From an uncultured Methanoregulaceae archaeon (GTDB lineage Archaea; Halobacteriota; Methanomicrobia; Methanomicrobiales; Methanospirillaceae), in assembly GCA_963737635.1 (NCBI GenBank), contig CAVTTL010000001.1, positions 416,001-480,000 of the forward strand: a DNA stretch of 64,000 nt, written 5' to 3'. The first letter of the stretch is position 1. The number at the start of each line of letters is the position of its first letter. This document shows positions 6,593 to 15,262 of the stretch, in pieces. A program made the position numbers and the translations under genes. Under the pieces are notes generated by a model. That model searched no databases. It was not told the origin of the DNA and saw nothing but the letters and a program-made list of their open reading frames with translations.

Positions 6593-6747
6593 TGCTTTTT
6601 CCCCCATGATCCACCATTTTTATCAGCGAATCCGGCGAGGGGATTTGGGCTCCTTGGTCGGTGCATCCGGGATTTGGTTCTTGTATTTAGGTAAGAAAAA
6701 GACACCAACAACTTTATAAACTGAGTCATAAACGAATAACCTTGAAT

Positions 6748-8187
6748 ATGAGACGAGATACGGCTTGGTCTTGCAGGGATCAAGCTCTTTCTGAAGTAAT
6801 AGGATTTGTCCTTATTATTGCGATTATTATGGCCGCATTCTCGCTGTACCTAGTCTATGGCGTCCCGGTGCAAGGGCGGGAGAATGAGATCAATCACATG
6901 AATGATATTAATGACCAGTTCGTGAGCTATAAGATCGGCGTGGATTCGCTCTGGACAAACCAGCAGGAAAATATCGCCATGAGTACTACCTTCCCTCTTG
7001 GCACCTCCGGCCAGACTGCGCAGGGAAGCACCAGCATCATACCGGTCTTGCAACCCATCGGATCGAGTGGTGCCCTCTTTATTAATCAGAGGACGTTAAC
7101 GCCGGAAACATTCGCTGTTTCATCTACATCGTATATCACTAATACAACAGCGATGACATCCGGTCCTCAAATTCAGATCGCGACGTCCCCCCAGATTACT
7201 ACACAGGTATATTCGAATGTCCCCTCCAGCCTGCTCATCAATATAACTGCAAATAATGTAAACCAGAATGAAAATCCCGCACGAAGCATTATCATTAACG
7301 GGAATTCATGGAATGCAATCATCAATATTACGCCACAATTGACGTATTATGTAACCTATTCACTTTCCAGTGGGACTCTTACTCAGAGCCCGGCGTTCAA
7401 TTATACCGGAACAGACGTCACCGTTACCGTGCAAAAAAAAGGAATCACATCTCTGGCGAGTTTTATAGTGTACCCCAATATCCAACAAGGTTCCACCTAT
7501 TCGGTTGACCTGCTGGATCCTGCCTATGGTTTAAACAGTGTCATATCCTACCCTGCCACAATCACGTATTCCCTTTATAATCCAACATCGGATATGACGG
7601 CAACTGCAACAGCTGAGTATGCCTACCAGCCCCAGTATAATTATACCTATTTAGTCCCACTCGGTTCCCTCGAATACAGTACGAGCAACAATTACTGGAT
7701 CCCACAGACGTACTATTACCAGATGGGCGGAGTGTTCCTTTCCCAGAGCGACGGGATCACCTATAAGCTTCCACCAGAGATTACGTTTACCTACAACGGG
7801 AACGGGAATATAACGGTAAACATTGTCGCGATCGCTTACGACCCTGCGAGTTCCGGTGTGATCGGTGGATCCAGCCCGGCGCAGGTATCGACGTCATTAA
7901 AAACCGATGCCGGCGCTCTGCCATACGCACCGATCAGCCTTAACACATGGAACGCAAGTATTAATATTACAACACCGGATCCGGATGCAGCCTTAATGTG
8001 GGCAGCGTACCTGAATGCGGCAGCAAACCAGACAGCAGGAATTCCAACAACTTACTTTACAGCGGAAAATACGACCACGGGGAGTTATATTTTGTTGCCG
8101 GGAGGAAATGATGGGAATCCCCACATCACTCTCAATGTAAAGACCGCAAACCTTTCCGTCAGTGTGCAGAGTGTGGCAAGTACATGA
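6748..8187 (+). CDS. Archaeal type IV pilin-like protein (class III signal peptide)
   Basis: RDQA/LSEVIGFVLIIAII prepilin motif; TTTATAAA promoter at 6713-6720. Confidence 0.85.
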   Translation: MRRDTAWSCRDQALSEVIGFVLIIAIIMAAFSLYLVYGVPVQGRENEINHMNDINDQFVSYKIGVDSLWTNQQENIAMSTTFPLGTSGQTAQGSTSIIPVLQPIGSSGALFINQRTLTPETFAVSSTSYITNTTAMTSGPQIQIATSPQITTQVYSNVPSSLLINITANNVNQNENPARSIIINGNSWNAIINITPQLTYYVTYSLSSGTLTQSPAFNYTGTDVTVTVQKKGITSLASFIVYPNIQQGSTYSVDLLDPAYGLNSVISYPATITYSLYNPTSDMTATATAEYAYQPQYNYTYLVPLGSLEYSTSNNYWIPQTYYYQMGGVFLSQSDGITYKLPPEITFTYNGNGNITVNIVAIAYDPASSGVIGGSSPAQVSTSLKTDAGALPYAPISLNTWNASINITTPDPDAALMWAAYLNAAANQTAGIPTTYFTAENTTTGSYILLPGGNDGNPHITLNVKTANLSVSVQSVAST

Positions 8188-9104
8188 GAAGCTCTGACAA
8201 GAGTGGCGAGGGTGCGGCATCCGAAGTTATCGGGACAGTTCTGTTGATCACTATCGTAGTTATTGCAGGATCGATTGTCGGTGTCGCTGTCCTATCCCAG
8301 CCGCAGGCACAGAAGATCCCTGCGCTCAGTGCCCTCATCTCGAACCATAGCCAGATCGTGTATATCAAACATGACGGGGGGGAATCGCTGCTAAATGGAA
8401 CCTATAAGATCCTGGTTGATGGTGTTGATGTCACATCCAGTATCAGCACCCCTTCCACGTGGTCTATCGGAGAAACGCTCACCTATACCAAACCGGGGAC
8501 TACTCCACCATCAAGTGTGGTACTTGTGTATACCGGATATGGCTCCGCAGGAGTGGTTTTAACTTCGGCGTATTTCGGACAGTATGTGGGCGGAGGATCA
8601 CCCACTGGAACAACGACTACAACGGCCACCGTAACTGCAACTACAACGACTATAACGACGGCTACCACTACGGCAACACCAGTCTCGGCGCCGGTGGCTA
8701 ACTTCACGGGCATACCGCTCACCGGAACCGCACCGCTTATAGTCCAGTTCACCGATACCTCTACGGGTACCCCGACTTCGTGGAACTGGTCATTTGGAGA
8801 TACATCATTCTCTGCCGCCCAAAACCCATCACACACCTATTCAACCGCAGGAACCTATTCCGTTACATTGACCGCAGCAAATGCCGGTGGGGGCAATGCA
8901 ATAACTAAAACCGGTTATATCACAGTTAATCCAAGCCAGATTCCCGCATCCACAGTTCTTGTGAATGCTAACAACTACCCAGGTAAACCGGGGTATCTGC
9001 TGAGTGGTGGATATATACAGTTCACCGTAACAGGAGATTATTACGAGATAACCTACGGAAGTACTCAGCATACATTTAATAATGGCGATATTGTCAGACT
9101 AACG

Positions 9105-9158
9105 GGTTCTGTTGCGTTGTCGGGACTTCTCAGGTAGGTGTTGCATGGCGGGACTTTT
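9105..9158 (+). repeat. Left terminal inverted repeat (54 bp)
   Basis: GGTTCTGTTGCGTTGTCGGGACTTCTCAGGTAGGTGTTGCATGGCGGGACTTTT; exact reverse complement at 13047-13100. Confidence 0.97.
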
Positions 9159-9180
9159 GGAGCAATAGATACAAGTCAGA

Positions 9181-9543
9181 TCAACCAAATTGATTTTTGT
9201 TTAAAATCAGTTCTTTTATTTGAATAAATATTGATAACTTTTTTTTTGTAAATTTGAATTTAATGGAATTTACCGCAGTACAAAAAATAGTGATCAATCC
9301 ACATGCATCTCCATCAAAGTCCAATATAGACCCTATCATAATCACAGATTTTCGAATCGCTAAAAGATCTCTATCCGTTTCGGCATAACTTTCGATAGTG
9401 CTTAATAATGATAGGATTTCATTCATCTTTGAAATTTTTTCAGATTTAGTTAATTCTTTATTAGTTAAAAGTTCTGACGTTATTTTAGAAATTTCAATCT
9501 TTTTATTGACCAGCATAAGCCGCTCAGCCTCGGTCAGTTCCAT
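9181..9543 (-). CDS. Orphan passenger protein, 120 aa
   Basis: Intact AT-rich ORF inside the element with a TATA-like stretch upstream; no family confidently recognised. Confidence 0.6.
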   Translation of the reverse strand: MELTEAERLMLVNKKIEISKITSELLTNKELTKSEKISKMNEILSLLSTIESYAETDRDLLAIRKSVIMIGSILDFDGDACGLITIFCTAVNSIKFKFTKKKLSIFIQIKELILNKNQFG

Positions 9544-9602
9544 GAACCATTATTTGTGGATGTTTATAATATGGTTTTGGGTAGGAAAAACAAAAAAGAG
9601 AG

Positions 9603-10787
9603 TTATTTTACCGATAATCCGATCATTGTCTCCCACCGGTTCCCCAAAAGATTGATCGGGATATTTGCCATTTGAGCCGGTGTTAATCCCCCAATTCCCT
9701 GATGTGGCCGGATGTAATTGTAATATGTCTGCATCCCGGCTACAAACTCCTCAGCGCCAACTGAGCTATCAAGGCTTCTCATTACCTTCGTCCTCTCTCT
9801 GAAAGTTCCGTTCAAGCGTTCGAGGATATTGTTGTTGGGCTTTGTCTCAAAGTCCTTTAACCGGATGTGTGGGTTCTGGATCGGCTCAGCAATATCGTAG
9901 AACTCGGCTTTAACGGCTTTCTTGTATGCCTGTAGCCCATCGGTGACTATTGCATCAGGTCGTCGGTTCGTAACTTCTTTCGCCTTCTTTAACGGAATAC
10001 GGGCATCTTCCACAAACCTCGTCTCAGTAATCTGGCAAGCCAAGAGGTAGCGCGTCTTCGCATCCATGAGGTTCCAGATCCAGTGATAGTGTTTCTTCTC
10101 ACCCTCTTTCTTGATGAACACCGTCGTTTCATCACAGTGCCAAATGTTGCCTACTTCCGCCTCGTACTTCTCAGCGTATTTTCCGAGTAACTGAGTGTAT
10201 TTCTTGATCCAGCGCATCGGGGTTGTAGGATCAACTTCCCGGTCGTGGAACTGTTGGATGTGATCGCTAATCTTCCTGAGGCTAACGCCTTTAAAATAAA
10301 GGTCGAGAGTGAGCGTGATTACTTTGGGATCGTGCTTTACCCGGCTGAATCCAACATTGATAACAAACCGGTGGTTGCAGTCTTTGCATCCGTACCGCTG
10401 GATCTCTCCATATGAGTTCGCCCTTACCCCTCGCTTTACAGTATTCTTACTTTTACAGATTGGACAGTTGATTCTCCCAATTTCATCACCCTGTATTTTT
10501 TGGGCTTTAATATCAGTTTCTACATCTACTTTAATTTTTAGGGAGAACTGAACGGCGTAAATGTGTTTACAAATAACGTTGCGGGTTTCGTGATCGGGGC
10601 AAGTGCATTTCCAGTCGTGCATGTGATTCCGATCCCGGCCTTTTACAAAGACACGAGAAACCCGGTAGTAAGCATCTTTTGACTGAGAACGCACATCCCA
10701 TTCGTTCTTTCCCATCGATATGATAGTGTCTGGCTCTGAGAGGATTTTTAGACCTCTTAACTCTCTTGGGTTGCTGAACTGATCCAT
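9603..10787 (-). CDS. IS6/IS240-type DDE transposase with N-terminal SWIM finger and Zn ribbon
   Basis: CTCPD..CKH (SWIM), CPIC..CKDC ribbon, HTH, WHCDET / VTDG / NNILER triad, YNYIRPH; AGGAG RBS before ATG 10787. Confidence 0.93.
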   Translation of the reverse strand: MDQFSNPRELRGLKILSEPDTIISMGKNEWDVRSQSKDAYYRVSRVFVKGRDRNHMHDWKCTCPDHETRNVICKHIYAVQFSLKIKVDVETDIKAQKIQGDEIGRINCPICKSKNTVKRGVRANSYGEIQRYGCKDCNHRFVINVGFSRVKHDPKVITLTLDLYFKGVSLRKISDHIQQFHDREVDPTTPMRWIKKYTQLLGKYAEKYEAEVGNIWHCDETTVFIKKEGEKKHYHWIWNLMDAKTRYLLACQITETRFVEDARIPLKKAKEVTNRRPDAIVTDGLQAYKKAVKAEFYDIAEPIQNPHIRLKDFETKPNNNILERLNGTFRERTKVMRSLDSSVGAEEFVAGMQTYYNYIRPHQGIGGLTPAQMANIPINLLGNRWETMIGLSVK

Positions 10788-10918
10788 CTTTGTTATCTCC
10801 TTGTTAGTTCTATGTATATACATTGTTCTAACAAGTATTTAATTGTTGTTGTTTTGTTGTAACAAAGATGCAACAATGTTGCGTAGATTTATATACAAAA
10901 TTGAACAAAGTAATTTCC

Positions 10919-11074
10919 ATGACTGGACAAATGGACGTTCACACATCAGCCTATCAGGTGCTTGACAAAACAGTGAAATCTATCGGGAACTCTGGCGGCG
11001 TCTTGGTTCCAAAAAAGTGGGTGGGGAAGAAAGTGAAGATCCTGTTATTGGAAGAAGTGATGGAAGAAGAATAA
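10919..11074 (+). CDS. DUF2080-like transposase-associated small protein (AbrB-like)
   Basis: KTVKSIGNSGGVLVPKKWVGKKVKIL; TTTATATA box at 10888-10895. Confidence 0.8.
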   Translation: MTGQMDVHTSAYQVLDKTVKSIGNSGGVLVPKKWVGKKVKILLLEEVMEEE

Positions 11075-11092
11075 GCAATCCTATTTTTCAAG

Positions 11093-11170
11093 TCTCGAGA
11101 AGTTTGGATCTCGAGCAGTGTTTAGAAGGATTCTCGAGCAAATCCAGTCTCGAGTAATTTGAGTCTCGAG
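11093..11170. repeat. Array of five TCTCGAG motifs (palindromic CTCGAG core)
   Basis: CTCGAG at 11094, 11110, 11133, 11149, 11165 (spacing 16, 23, 16, 16), just upstream of TTTTATAA at 11185-11192. Confidence 0.85.
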
Positions 11171-11215
11171 AAACAAATGGATAATTTTATAATTTGCTGA
11201 ATGTACGATCATTCT

Positions 11216-12340
11216 ATGGAGCAAACAAAACTTGTAAACGAGATGGAGGAAACAAAAGACGCCGATATTGACATAAAACCCTCTATAAAGTTCTTGAATA
11301 CAAAACAAAAAGAACTCTTCACAACTGTAGTAGATTATAATTTGGGTACATTAGCAAACTTGGTATCACAAGAAATAATTGAGCTATCTCCAAGATTTCA
11401 AAGAAGATCTCGTTGGGACGCAACAAAAAAATCAAAGCTTATAGAATCGTTTTTAATGAACGTTCCAGTCCCTCAGATATTTCTGAATGAAGATTTAACC
11501 GGTAGATATTCGATAATTGATGGGAAACAGAGATTAACTGCCATACATGATTTTTTATACGGTGGATTAATCTTAACTGATTTGGAAGTTTTTAGCGATC
11601 TAAACGGTAAAAATTTTGAAAGTCTTCCGATACAGCATAAATCAACTTTACAAGCAAGAGCAATTCTACGAGCTGTAATTATTTTAAAACAATCCAACAA
11701 GACGATAAAATATGAAGTTTTCCGTCGATTAAATACCGGTGGAGTTGAACTCAATGCTCAGGAAATCCGAAATAGTGTTGCCCCCAGTAAATTTAATGAT
11801 ATGTTACTCGAGGTGTCGGAGAACAAAAAATTCCATAAACTTCTGAATATAAAAGACAAAAATACATCTAAAACCTATCAGGAAATGCTCGACGTAGAAT
11901 TTGTTTTGAGATATTGCACATTTAAAGATATTTGGCAGACTTTTTCTGGGGGAATCGGAAGTAGCATGGATGATTTTATGGATGACAACCAAAAAACTCC
12001 AAAGGACAAATGTAATGAAATGCGAAAAGATTTCTTAAATACATTGGATGTAGTTGAAGCGTGCTTTGGGGAGGATGCATTCAAACGATATTTACCAGAT
12101 AAAGAACGCTGGAGACCAAAGGTTTTGGCTTCGTTATACGATGCTCAAATGTTTGCGTGTAGTGGATTAACTGTCTCTCGAGTAATCCCCCACAAAGATG
12201 AAATTGTAAGCAATTATAAAGAGTTGTTTTCAGATCTGGAGTTCCGCAAAACAATTGACGCTGGTACAAACACCCCGTCATATTTCATAGGTAGGATAAC
12301 CAAGGTTAAAAAGATCATAACAGATGCTATCCGTTGTTAG
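11216..12340 (+). CDS. DUF262 (ParB/Srx-like, GmrSD N-terminal-type) protein
   Basis: PRFQRR..W, IDGKQRL, FRRLNTGG..L motifs; start 11216 fits a leaderless transcript from the TATA at 11185 (alternative start 11201). Confidence 0.9.
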   Translation: MEQTKLVNEMEETKDADIDIKPSIKFLNTKQKELFTTVVDYNLGTLANLVSQEIIELSPRFQRRSRWDATKKSKLIESFLMNVPVPQIFLNEDLTGRYSIIDGKQRLTAIHDFLYGGLILTDLEVFSDLNGKNFESLPIQHKSTLQARAILRAVIILKQSNKTIKYEVFRRLNTGGVELNAQEIRNSVAPSKFNDMLLEVSENKKFHKLLNIKDKNTSKTYQEMLDVEFVLRYCTFKDIWQTFSGGIGSSMDDFMDDNQKTPKDKCNEMRKDFLNTLDVVEACFGEDAFKRYLPDKERWRPKVLASLYDAQMFACSGLTVSRVIPHKDEIVSNYKELFSDLEFRKTIDAGTNTPSYFIGRITKVKKIITDAIRC

Positions 12341-12349
12341 AGGAATATT

Positions 12350-13036
12350 ATGAGACAACCATCTTTTGCTCTCGAGAATTTTAAAAAATCGATTGCAATT
12401 GCTGAGACTTTGCTAACTCGAGAGAGGAGATACAAAGAACCCCTACAAATAAAAAATTTTAAGATAGTTCAAGGTCTCCGGGGAGGTGCGTTGGTATTGA
12501 TGGTGGCATCGTTCGAAAATTACCTCAAAGAGGTGATGGAAGAACGATTGAATGAATTGTCTTCATCTTCAAAATTTAATTTTTCTTCATTACCCCCTAA
12601 AATTATCCAGCATAATCACAAAGTGACTCTCTCTCGATCATTGCGTGCTCCGGACGATTTTGATACCCCTCAAAAAATCTCGAGGTTGGTGACAGCTTCT
12701 GAATTTGTCACATACAAACGGATTAATCCTGAAGCATTCAGTGTTGCTATTAGAAGCAACCCAAATTCGGAAAGACTCGAGGACTTTTTCAAATCAATTG
12801 GACATAAAGATTTTTTTAAGAGAACCGAGGAAAAATATGAAAATAAAGCTGGAAAAAAAACTGATGTCAAAGGTACATTAGATTCTATTATTCGTCAAAG
12901 ACATCTGGTGGCTCATTATGCAAATGCTATTTCCCTGAGTCGATATGAATTAAATGAGTATGTAACGTTTTTAAAAAACCTTTCAGAAATATGTGATGAT
13001 GAATTATATATTAGAATCCAATCACTCAACAAATAG
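12350..13036 (+). CDS. HEPN nuclease (MAE_28990 / RiboL-PSP-HEPN-like)
   Basis: ALVLMVASFENYLKE helix and Rx4H motif RHLVAH; 9 bp after the DUF262 stop. Confidence 0.82.
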   Translation: MRQPSFALENFKKSIAIAETLLTRERRYKEPLQIKNFKIVQGLRGGALVLMVASFENYLKEVMEERLNELSSSSKFNFSSLPPKIIQHNHKVTLSRSLRAPDDFDTPQKISRLVTASEFVTYKRINPEAFSVAIRSNPNSERLEDFFKSIGHKDFFKRTEEKYENKAGKKTDVKGTLDSIIRQRHLVAHYANAISLSRYELNEYVTFLKNLSEICDDELYIRIQSLNK

Positions 13037-13046
13037 ACTCTTTCTA

Positions 13047-13100
13047 AAAAGTCCCGCCATGCAACACCTACCTGAGAAGTCCCGACAACGCAACAGAACC
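13047..13100 (-). repeat. Right terminal inverted repeat (54 bp)
   Basis: Exact reverse complement of 9105-9158, followed by GACTAACG. Confidence 0.97.
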
Positions 13101-13695
13101 GACTAACGTTAGATTCAACAACACAAGGGACTAACATTAATGGACCTGCTATATACGTCACACCTAGCCAAATCTCTACATTTAATCTCAATGATGTCGA
13201 TCTGACCATTAACGGTGTGGATTATGGCCAATATACGATCTCCCAAATATATATCGGCAGTTACAGTTCCTTCACATCCACTCTTACGTTGAATGTCCCT
13301 TCGCAATCAGCACAGACAGAGTTCGATGCAAATGGGGCATGCGTGATATGTAACGCGGTCAGTTCTACTCCGATCACCGTCTATAATCTGGGGATGGGGG
13401 CAGGTGGAATTAACCTTGGACCTATGGCGACTATTTATTACAGCGGTGGAGCGACCGGGTATTCTCTTTCCTGATCCCTGAATGTTATTTTAAATAATTT
13501 CTTGCATTTTTTTTACTTGTTCTACCTCAGGCACATTCCCTCGGGAAGTAGTTCGGGTTTCGATTCAGCACGATGTTTCAATGGGGGCAGAGGTAAATGA
13601 CTAAGATTCGGCTCTTCAGAAACTCTTGGTTTCCGATCAATTACAAAAACGTATCGACTGAAGGGACAGAGTCCCCTATATTTTAATCAGCTTTT

Positions 13696-15262
13696 TCACC
13701 GTGAGGGATGGGGAATTATATGCGAGTTCCTGCTCACGAGCAGATTATACGCATCGTGTGCCAGGTTATACCGCACCAGCACATTCCGGATCTCAAGCAC
13801 CGCGCCATATGGCGCGGACCCCAGCTCCCGGTTAGACTGGGCGATGTGAAATGCAGGCAGCACTGCATATACCGGTTTTTCTGCTGAACCGTCGCAGAGT
13901 CTAAACAAATGAGTTTCCGCATCTCCGAGATCCTCGGACATTTTCGCCGCCACTATCGTGATCCGTTTTCCCACGTTCAGATGTACTTTGGACAGACGCA
14001 GCGCTTTCGTATCTTTCTGGATGTGACAGGATGCGCGAACCTTCCCATCCTTCCGTAATATTACATAGCTGTACTTGATGTCCGTATTCACGTACCGGAA
14101 CGCCTCATTGCATCCCGCAAGAGTATTCATGATCCGGGTGGGTCGAATTGAGGGAGCGGTCTGAAAACTCCAGCATCGATCCGGAGTGCAGTTCGTGCCC
14201 CAGACGAACGTGCAGGGGGCATAGATCGAGAGACCCTGCTTCTTTAACGCGAGGGCAAGGATACGCAGGCCGGTGGAAGTCGCTTCTTCCGCGGGTTCGA
14301 TTATGAGGAGCGTACCGTCCGGTGCAAGCCGTTCTGCATAGTTCATCACAATATCCGCACGCGCTGCAACCGACAGTCCAGCCAGTTCGTTGAGTACGTT
14401 GGAAAAGATCATCAGATCGACGCTGTCAGGGAGCGGCACGTCCCGGGGGGAGGTGATATCAGACTTCCTTGGAAGACTCTATCGTTACTTGGGGGTCCTG
14501 TAAGATAACACTCCGGGCCAGAGCATCAAATGCTTCGATGTGCTCTTTTGAGCGTTCGACAGAATAGACTGTCGCCCGGGCTGTATCCAGACACATCCAG
14601 AAATCCTCGATGGCAAGAGGTATGACCCCCGGCCCGGTGCCGAGATCGAGGATTGTCATCTGCTGTTTCAGCAGCCCGTCACGGGCAAGCTGCGCAAGAA
14701 GGTGCCGGGCCTGCATGAAGTAGACCGGGAAATGGTACGCAAGGTAGCCGAGCACTGAATAGCCTTTCGTGTACTGGAGCGACCGTTTGTCTGTCGGTTT
14801 CCAGTAATCGTCTTTCTGGGCGACAATCGCGCGGCGGAGCCGTTCGAGAATCACCGGATCAGACCAGTCTTTGCCGGTTTTTCTGGTGATGTACTGCTCG
14901 ATGGCCGTTTCAAGAACAGAAGGCATGGCAGAGAGGGAAAGGTACGCGTTAAGGCGTTTTTCTTCGGCAGTATTCAGGATGTAAGAGTGTGGCGGCAGCT
15001 GCCGCGAAATAGTATAGTCTTCACCGGTCTTTTGTGCGGCAAGACCAAGTCCGGCAAGATGCGGTTGGATCGCCGCATACATCTGCCCGATGGTCAGCGG
15101 TTCGTCAAGATAGGCTGCAATCTCAGAAAGCAGGAAGGCCGGTTTTGTGCCGGACACGTATTTTATCGTTGAAAGAAACTGCTTTGCGGCCATGATCTGC
15201 CGGAATCTTTGCCGCGTGCCCTCATACATCTTTGGATGGCTATCCCTCGTCAGCTCTGCCAC
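13696..15262 (-). CDS. Class I SAM-dependent methyltransferase (Rsm22-like), frameshift near 14470
   Basis: YLAYHFP, ILDLGTGPG in the 5' ORF; SNVLNEL, LIIEPA, IYAPC...CW, YSYVIL in the 3' ORF. Confidence 0.8.

Follow-up and report, generated by a model that had tools for sequence, protein, structure and literature searches.

A probable unit transposon with a distantly IS6-like core and predicted PD-T4-2-like defence cargo in an uncultured Methanoregulaceae archaeon

The insertion sequences (IS) of the IS6 family are regarded as bare elements of 0.8 kb that need to be paired in order to move genes, and the cited sections of a 2021 review name one passenger-bearing member, ISDsp3, as a 'tIS', or transporter IS (PMC7986276). 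The same sections give family members terminal repeats of 15–20 bp, 8-bp target-site duplications and tips with GG and a cTGTt motif, and mention zinc-finger transposases for no clades other than h and i, in Clostridia. They describe gene movement as usually proceeding via directly repeated pairs of copies (PMC7986276). A 2019 analysis lists archaeal members of 671–782 bp and long bacterial ones of 1,226–1,761 bp, and none of the entries seen in its tables comes from Methanomicrobiales (PMC6807381). Here we describe an element of 3,996 bp (positions 9105–13100) in a 64,000-nt stretch of DNA from an uncultured Methanoregulaceae archaeon (contig CAVTTL010000001.1 of assembly GCA_963737635.1, positions 416,001–480,000). 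This whole stretch, at its full length, is referred to as the window. We consider it highly probable that the element is an intact unit transposon, or 'transporter IS', with a distantly IS6-like core and with a PD-T4-2-like defence pair and a 120-amino-acid (aa) protein as cargo.

In bacteria, Tn3-family and Tn7-like transposons are known carriers of defence genes, with one transposition module, variable cargo and fixed ends. The window element differs from these in its unrelated type of transposase, in having no resolvase or target selector and in being much smaller. To our knowledge, little has been written on the exchange of defence genes among archaea. Of the described systems closest to the cargo, PD-T4-2 appears under both DUF262 and PF18735 HEPN in the table of one review (PMC10952713), and its deletion from the native E. 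coli strain raised T4 plaquing in the part of the original study cited here (PMC9519451). The Menshen protein NsnA is described, in the sections cited, as a ParB-DUF262 protein with a DNA-binding domain, serving as the sensor, with NsnB and NsnC also needed (PMC12065111). A passage in a 2013 survey of HEPN proteins records the RiboL-PSP type in an 'operon with ParB' (PMC3710099).

The window element has base-exact boundaries. Its arms, at 9105–9158 (+ strand, beside the 3′ end of the transposase gene) and 13047–13100 (− strand), are 54 nt each and 100% complementary (54/54). The sequence GACTAACG lies directly outside each end, at 9097–9104 and 13101–13108, as identical 8-bp copies read directly. 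Because these copies abut both ends, the element measures 3,996 bp. A 30-nt end probe had only two matches in the 64-kb window, both at the element ends, and two or more matches were obtained in 0 of 100 dinucleotide shuffles. Five open reading frames (ORFs) lie inside the ends, all of them intact, and a single one encodes a transposase.

The element splits a gene for a pilin/PKD surface protein. The 5′ part (8184–9104, + strand, 307 codons) encodes an archaeal type IV pilin N-terminus (Pfam Pilin_N, 1.4e-13) and a PKD domain (PKD_4, 2.3e-16), and the 3′ part (13109–13474, + strand, 121 codons plus stop) continues in the same frame. With the insert and a single duplication copy removed, 8184–9104 and 13109–13471 form one frame of 428 aa (307 + 121). 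The whole 4 kb moved into this gene as one piece and made the 8-bp duplication. An initial annotation of this DNA, made from the letters alone, had reported the exact ends, perfect 54-bp inverted repeats, 8-bp duplication and single transposase, all of which were reproduced. Its reading of a single-unit transposon moved as one 4-kb piece agrees with the one transposase, the inverted ends and the duplication, and the ORF layout bears out its placement of cargo on both sides of the transposase gene. The four passenger ORFs it counted are all intact, but one of them, the DUF2080 ORF discussed below, is an accessory gene associated with the transposase rather than cargo.

The DDE transposase gene (9603–10787, − strand) encodes 394 aa with an IS240-type DDE domain. 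Its ORF is open back to 10823 (406 aa). The homologues are 392–409 aa long and begin at ORF residue M13, so the gene is probably 9603–10787. Numbered along the 406-aa ORF and aligned with a total of 20 family members, the catalytic residues D231, D295 and R342 are conserved in 20/20 and E335 in 19/20. Two N-terminal motifs are invariant, W71-C73-C75...C85-H87, which follows the SWIM pattern CxCx(n)CxH, and a zinc ribbon formed by C120, C123, C146 and C149. Pfam DDE_Tnp_IS240 matched at 2.6e-15 (57.2 bits, cut-off 27) and SWIM matched weakly, while two zinc-binding N-terminal models scored above their cut-offs (NF050000, 29.1 against 28; NF048018, 29.3 against 27). The best NCBIfam match was transpos_IS6, which covered model positions 1–201 of 202 at 110.3 bits (cut-off 125). 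A search of 72,556 plasmids with the transposase matched 155 records. The best 25 of these comprised 14 annotated as 'IS6 family transposase', one IS240 protein, one generic DDE, one IS1 and eight without a listed gene. Among the matches listed, the top two came from Clostridium perfringens and C. botulinum (28% identity, residues 96–385, E 2e-25), and identity to annotated IS6 transposases was 21–28%. The protein collection held 1,170 matches at E ≤ 1e-20, the best 88% identical, under generic names only. Judged by these comparisons, the transposase appears to be a distant, zinc-finger relative of IS6.

The initial annotation had assigned the element to the IS6 family as an IS257/IS1216-type member. 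This assignment was not upheld, given a score of 110 bits against the cut-off of 125, identities of at most 28% and a nearest match to the long zinc-finger Clostridium type; the size of the element and the length of its ends also lie outside the usual description of the family. With IS6/IS26 elements (IS26, IS257/IS431, IS240, ISS1) the window element shares the IS240-type DDE domain, transpos_IS6 as best-scoring family, albeit below its cut-off, the 8-bp duplication and tips that start with GG and hold CTGTT. Its first 11 bases probably equal those of IS257 and IS1216. It differs from them in its 3,996 bp with five genes, against 0.7–0.9 kb (671–1,761 bp in the ISfinder lists of 2019) with a single transposase ORF. 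Further differences are the two-site ends of 54–60 bp in its family, against 14–20 bp, and an N-terminal extension of its transposase by about 150 residues that contain two zinc modules. Like a transporter IS, it carries passenger genes between the ends of a single unit with its own transposase.

The long zinc-finger IS6 elements of Clostridia (ISCpe7, ISCbo1; clades VII/h and VIII/i) resemble it in their N-terminal zinc finger, 8-bp duplications and somewhat longer ends, as described in the cited parts of both analyses (PMC6807381, PMC7986276). They are, however, bacterial, 1.2–1.76 kb long and without cargo in the tables, and they stand at 28% identity, with the ISfinder entries compared by description. 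The window transposase also has an added SWIM-like module. ISDsp3 of Dehalococcoides likewise holds a passenger gene within a single IS6-type unit but, compared by its description in the cited part of the 2019 analysis, is 1,456 bp long, lacks an intact zinc finger and has a single hypothetical passenger (PMC6807381).

Similarly built elements that carry different cargo are found at different sites in other genomes. When a single genome of each species was scanned, 36 loci with transposase relatives emerged, of which the 24 with a near full-length match were analysed. At 18 of the 24, same-type GGTTCTG... ends surround the gene and are bordered by identical 8-bp flanks. These 18 elements range from 2,614 to 10,983 bp and have 18 different duplications; every one is at least 2.6 kb long and contains at least one non-transposase ORF of at least 97 aa. 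Two of the 24 loci have end pairs without identical flanks, and at four no ends were found, the gene lying near a contig end in three of them. Further duplication-bounded elements are present in the same genome as the window element (G000:C1:1060413-1065642, duplication CCTCTAGA) and in genome G072 (CGTGAATG). The former (locus L080) is a second intact element of 5,230 bp, with a transposase 67% identical to that of the window element, and carries a radical-SAM protein, a SocA/Panacea antitoxin and two proteins of unassigned function. The G072 element is the closest relative (transposase 85%, DUF2080 55% identical) and has only the ends, the transposase gene and DUF2080 in common with the window element. 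A third, distant element with a transposase about 40% identical is also present in the own genome.

The 24-nt end, with up to two mismatches, occurred in 34 of 201 Methanoregulaceae genomes, the own genome included, compared with 0/201 for a reversed control pattern. The transposase (E ≤ 1e-60) was found in 21 of 301 genomes of the order, again including the own genome, at 1–4 matches per genome. The initial annotation had called the element archaeal, in keeping with its relatives in Methanoregula, and had proposed a check for other insertion sites and for cargo variation. The related elements display both, so that the lack of these features, which it had named as counting against its reading, is not what was found.

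Two observations concern copies outside these sets. A transposase copy 73% identical, with an open frame of 395 aa, lies at G000:C1:277210-278379, where no ends were found. A distant lineage, with transposases 34–40% identical, is present at L085 6576-9159, L087 6650-9586 and L081 539-3757, on contigs that IMG/VR classifies as viral, with GGTTCTG tips, two-site ends and 8-bp duplications (CTTGCCTA, GCGTGTGG). When viral contigs were searched with the single protein, no close transposase relatives were found, and an alignment query recovered distant ones only.

The 68-aa ORF at 10868–11074 (+ strand) is divergent from the transposase gene. It matches Pfam DUF2080 (7.3e-9) and NCBIfam NF033496, 'DUF2080 family transposase-associated protein', at 55.8 bits (cut-off 22). 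The gene is a core accessory gene rather than cargo, and its product is probably a regulator. It is the sole DUF2080 gene in the own genome and is found in the same place in L017, L032, L036 and G072. The cargo comparison covered 21 elements, namely that of the window, the 18 duplication-bounded relatives and the two without matching flanks. In this set, 4 of 21 have a DUF2080-like ORF that is positioned upstream of the transposase gene and divergent from it. A second family of small ORFs, read as AbrB/MazE-like from an iterated search, is found in seven other elements, at the same position in five, one of them a weak match. The parts shared across elements thus define a core of ends, transposase gene and small partner gene, and the rest is cargo, placed on either or both sides. 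Autoregulation through an end hexamer recurring upstream of the transposase gene was rejected, as this was true in just 3 of 20 elements.

Each end is composed of two sites. At the left end, an outer site (9105–9128, GGTTCTGTTGCGTTGTCGGGACTT) is separated by a 10-nt spacer (9129–9138) from an inner site (9139–9158, TGTTGCATGGCGGGACTTTT), all on the + strand, the two-site layout being common to the relatives. The right end is its mirror, with the inner site at 13047–13066, spacer at 13067–13076 and outer site at 13077–13100. Across the family, the outer site spans positions 1–24, with the pattern GGTTC-TGNTNN-...-GG(GACTT or TTGAT), and the inner site repeats its hexamer and 3′ heptamer. The outer hexamer recurs in its own end in 30 of 42 ends, compared with 5.9% of comparisons with the hexamers of other types. 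For the heptamer, allowing one mismatch, the values are 37/42 and 6.7%. End type tracks the transposase clade. As related sequences share labels, this agreement is consistent with co-evolution and is no proof of it. We infer that the outer and inner sites are two candidate binding sites for one protein.

Other arrangements of the ends were also observed. Back-to-back pairs of elements with exactly one copy of the 8-bp duplication between them occur at L027 746-10661, L020 1919-6691, L018 1989-10373 and L082 1466-7457, and in L027 and L020 the same 8 bp are present three times. These pairs suggest insertion aimed at the junction beside the end of a resident element. Units of about 90 bp, resembling miniature inverted-repeat transposable elements (MITEs), consist of two inverted outer end sites, for which clear duplications could not be defined. 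In G000:C1 they lie at 821029-821120, 1988816-1988907, 2140097-2140186, 2153781-2153867, 2154711-2154802 and 2371688-2371780, and they are also found in L063 and others. Many solo ends are clustered at 2.14–2.16 Mb and 2.35–2.42 Mb of G000:C1.

The window element carries three cargo genes. The DUF262/ParB-like gene (11201–12340, + strand) encodes a protein of the NsnA / PD-T4-2_A type. Pfam GmrSD_N matched residues 52–192 (1.7e-25), PADLOC NsnA matched residues 13–377 against model positions 22–383 of 385 (3.5e-74), and PD-T4-2_A matched residues 51–367 against positions 43–355 of 363 (9.4e-39). A DGKQR motif is located at residues 107–111, where D107–R111 are invariant. The family is large and well conserved across bacteria and archaea (2,600 proteins at E ≤ 1e-30; the best 120 listed are 50–79% identical), and no close relatives were confirmed in metagenome contigs. 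The downstream gene (12350–13036, + strand) encodes a 228-aa RiboL-PSP-type HEPN protein (Pfam PF18735, 1.3e-16), a predicted RNase with the motif R184-x4-H189. R184, A188 and H189 are invariant in 41 sequences. Homologues form 226 representative clusters at E ≤ 0.001, with 27–65% identity among the 150 listed. By these identities, the HEPN partner diverges faster than the DUF262 protein. Of 401 genomes of the phylum, three, the own genome included, encode a HEPN homologue, with a DUF262 gene directly upstream in 3/3. The proteins of the pair in G129 are 57% and 44% identical to the window pair.

A leader at 11088–11175 (+ strand), upstream of the DUF262 gene, contains five TCTCGAG motifs in a direct repeat with a 16-nt tandem unit. 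CTCGAG occurs 11 times in 10868–13036, compared with 0.29 expected (Markov-1; maximum 3 in 2,000 simulations) and a genome mean of 0.17 per kb. Five of the sites fall in the 90-nt leader (11094, 11110, 11133, 11149 and 11165), and the transposase half of the element has none. The homologous DUF262–HEPN pairs in G129 and G441 have one CTCGAG site each.

The third cargo gene (9181–9543, − strand) encodes the 120-aa protein, to which no function is assigned. Searches of Pfam, NCBIfam and PADLOC gave no family match, and ESM Atlas gave no usable match. It has 23 homologues of about 121 aa (44–98% identity), and the full-length ones shown are alike through the last residues, which indicates that the ORF is a real gene. 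It is missing from the closest related element, in G072. The cargo is AT-rich: GC is 0.35 in the DUF262 and HEPN genes and 0.29 in the 120-aa ORF, compared with 0.46 in the transposase gene and 0.51 in the flanks. These values fit acquisition from elsewhere.

With PD-T4-2 of E. coli ECOR65, the window pair shares a two-gene module of DUF262 and PF18735 HEPN, the domain call for the B gene resting on the review table in the part cited (PMC10952713). It differs in that its A protein scores higher on NsnA, its HEPN protein matches no PADLOC model at E ≤ 0.1, its host is archaeal and it is borne on a transposon. Read from these matches, gene A belongs with PD-T4-2, and gene B does so at the domain level only. 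The DUF262 protein also matches NsnA of Menshen (NsnABC) over its full length, but the element lacks both the NsnB ABC ATPase and NsnC (inactive PIN plus effector), and the only downstream gene is that of the 228-aa HEPN protein. In contrast to GmrSD type IV restriction, the protein has GmrSD_N only, with no joined DUF1524 His-Me nuclease; DUF1524 was not matched at E ≤ 0.1 in Pfam. The initial annotation had proposed defence-type cargo, in line with the NsnA and PD-T4-2_A matches followed by the PF18735 HEPN gene. Its suggestion of an undescribed system does not extend to this cargo pair, which is of the known, validated PD-T4-2 type, although the transposon family may be undescribed. On present evidence from sequence, the cargo is a PD-T4-2-like predicted defence pair plus a conserved 120-aa protein, and the cargo system itself is not new.

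Cargo differs widely across the family. The 21 elements contain 139 ORFs of at least 55 aa, which after removal of 22 transposase ORFs leaves 117, in 83 BLAST clusters with 66 singletons. Pfam families among the 117 are N6_N4_Mtase (8), MazE (5), ParB_N, Bpu10I restriction enzyme, HD and SocA/Panacea (2 each), and MvaI/BcnI, BsaWI, HNH, N6_Mtase, Methylase_S, Fic, dCTP-deaminase-like, nucleoside deoxyribosyltransferase, DUF1848, GmrSD_N and HEPN (1 each). PADLOC type II methyltransferase models matched 9/117. As classified by these matches, the cargo varies among restriction-modification, toxin–antitoxin and HD/dGTPase-like genes and many without assigned function. Ten larger recurrent or striking cargo proteins matched nothing in Pfam or PADLOC, except for one weak PADLOC match.

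One cargo cluster (CL2; L018, L019, L023, L035 and L036) comprises proteins of 303–356 aa from 5 of the 21 elements, with 24–42% mutual identity, and its genes always adjoin an end and read inward. In ESM Atlas, one CL2 member falls among proteasome-beta-like proteins, a lead only. A separate 270-aa cargo protein at L027 9190-9999 matches Pfam Proteasome (6e-7).

A mechanism can be proposed for the element. The N-terminal domains of the transposase would bind both sites, outer and inner, at each end, and the enzyme would make staggered cuts 8 bp apart in the target. Insertion is probably replicative, on the model of IS26, via a cointegrate that would be resolved by host recombination. DUF2080 would regulate the divergent promoters. 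The DUF262 protein may sense invading, possibly modified, DNA in a manner dependent on nucleoside triphosphates, and its HEPN partner would degrade RNA. The family would thereby spread defence and addiction genes among Methanoregulaceae.

Several points weigh against an intact, mobile transposon with an IS6-like core and defence cargo. The IS6 assignment is weak, with the NCBIfam score below cut-off and at most 28% identity to annotated IS6 transposases. Some of the small ORFs counted look non-coding, many family cargo ORFs match no family, and the HEPN protein is matched by none of the PADLOC models at E ≤ 0.1, that of PD-T4-2_B included. The proposed mechanism draws on analogy, and transposition and defence activity are both predictions. 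The own genome has one copy only of the window element, and the identical 54-mer had 0 exact matches in metagenome contigs. Part or all of the stretch was present in 14 run rows from 6 studies, and two of these rows are flagged as runs from which this DNA may derive. Among contigs of 4 runs, each from a different study, compared with 8200–14000, none joined 9104 to 13109, so current mobility is putative; because contigs drop rare variants, the missing empty-site contig does not show absence. The recurring hexamer of the inner site starts at position 35 only in the two ends of the window element, compared with 44 in 27 other ends. The two ends are also identical through the spacer, whereas left and right spacers differ in relatives, an identity that copying from one end to the other may explain. 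The element could be a fixed, immobile relic, its identical ends produced by end-to-end copying and its transposition disabled by the 10-nt site spacing, as the unusual hexamer position, the identical spacers, the single copy and the lack of an empty-site contig would all fit. We regard such a relic as improbable, since the five ORFs are intact, the catalytic residues are conserved, and the duplication and ends are without mismatch. The 9-nt shift in position also amounts to nearly one helical turn, so both sites would still face roughly the same side of the double helix. The perfect ends and duplication also fit the recent insertion that had been suggested earlier, but no empty site was seen and two further studies carry the same flank-to-end junctions.

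These junctions bear on two other explanations. An ordinary IS6 pseudo-compound transposon, or a chance or assembly artefact, in place of a single unit is scarcely credible. Although IS6 genes are usually moved by directly repeated pairs of copies, as stated in the cited sections of the review (PMC7986276), the window element has one transposase gene, and its only repeats are the inverted 54-nt ends, not whole IS copies. Two end matches arose in none of the 100 shuffles, and contigs of two other studies run from the flanks into the ends. In these, X3 and X7 contigs at the left flank and one X7 contig at the right flank extend 30 letters into an end with no differences, an overlap one letter below the 31-letter bridging rule. 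The occupied site recurs across samples. Such recurrence would also fit stable retention of cargo that serves the element itself, in which the DUF262–HEPN pair and the restriction-modification and toxin–antitoxin genes of relatives are addiction modules that punish loss of the transposon or its carrier replicon, with virus protection as a by-product. The recognisable family cargo is rich in type II methyltransferases, restriction enzymes, MazE, SocA/Panacea and Fic, and the copy number is low, at 1–4 transposase matches per genome. We nevertheless judge this unlikely, if less so than a relic. In its native host, PD-T4-2, which is the nearest characterised system, gives protection against T4 in the part of the study cited (PMC9519451), and IS6-like ends and transposases are absent for about 7 kb around the G129 pair, so that the pair persists without the transposon. 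Addiction and defence roles are, moreover, mutually compatible.

Further contigs were seen beside those that span the junctions. X3 and X4 contigs match the element up to 9668 (9619–9668) or from 10812 and then continue into unrelated sequence absent from this genome, and short parts of four loose contig ends in X3, X4 and X7 are likewise not in this genome. These loose ends are probably related elements of other organisms in the same communities, with another transposase body. A search for an uninterrupted orthologue of the target gene among 80 genomes of the genus gave a best match of 59% identity, which, in a large PKD paralogue family, is not informative on the empty site.

The elements appear to form a transposon family that has cargo as a rule and two co-varying sites per end, a new form of a known kind of element. 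No description of this family was found in the literature searched, a search that stopped short of ISfinder, TnCentral and supplementary files. The cited parts of a 2026 survey of archaeal IS (PMC13343696) and of a study of permafrost mobile elements (bioRxiv 10.1101/2025.02.12.637893) likewise contain no description of it. A broader proposal is possible, although we would stop short of calling it probable, and this estimate applies to the proposal as a whole. Under it, an undescribed family of obligate cargo-carrying unit transposons, in methanogens and other archaea, would be a main vehicle of defence genes in Methanoregulaceae. Such a family would combine a SWIM/zinc-ribbon DDE transposase only remotely related to IS6 with ends of about 60 bp bearing two co-evolving sites, and it would also have an AbrB/DUF2080 partner, MITE-like derivatives of about 90 bp and insertion exactly beside a resident end. 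The unmatched cargo genes would include new archaeal defence systems, such as the proteasome-beta-like proteins (5/21 elements), a 468+190-aa pair and proteins of 829 and 534 aa. The ParB-like sensor would use the CTCGAG array as a loading or operator site.

In peat and soil methanogens, these single-unit elements have cargo as a rule, with base-exact ends and exact duplications. Recognisable defence and addiction genes stand in them alongside many unassigned ones, and association with such elements offers a route to new archaeal defence genes. As the two sites of each end co-vary, the family provides a natural experiment on the co-evolution of transposase and ends. If active, the element is also a candidate genetic tool for methanogens.

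The surroundings of the window element consist of ordinary genes (ACT/DUF5612, Sua5/YrdC, nucleotidyltransferase and aminotransferase) and a tRNA-Gly, and are thus not a defence island. Rfam gave no match within window positions 7000–15000. The interrupted gene is the second of two neighbouring pilin-like genes, DUF7289 (6742–8187) followed by Pilin_N plus PKD (8184–9104). PKD paralogues abound in this genus, where a single genome can have as many as 47 matches.

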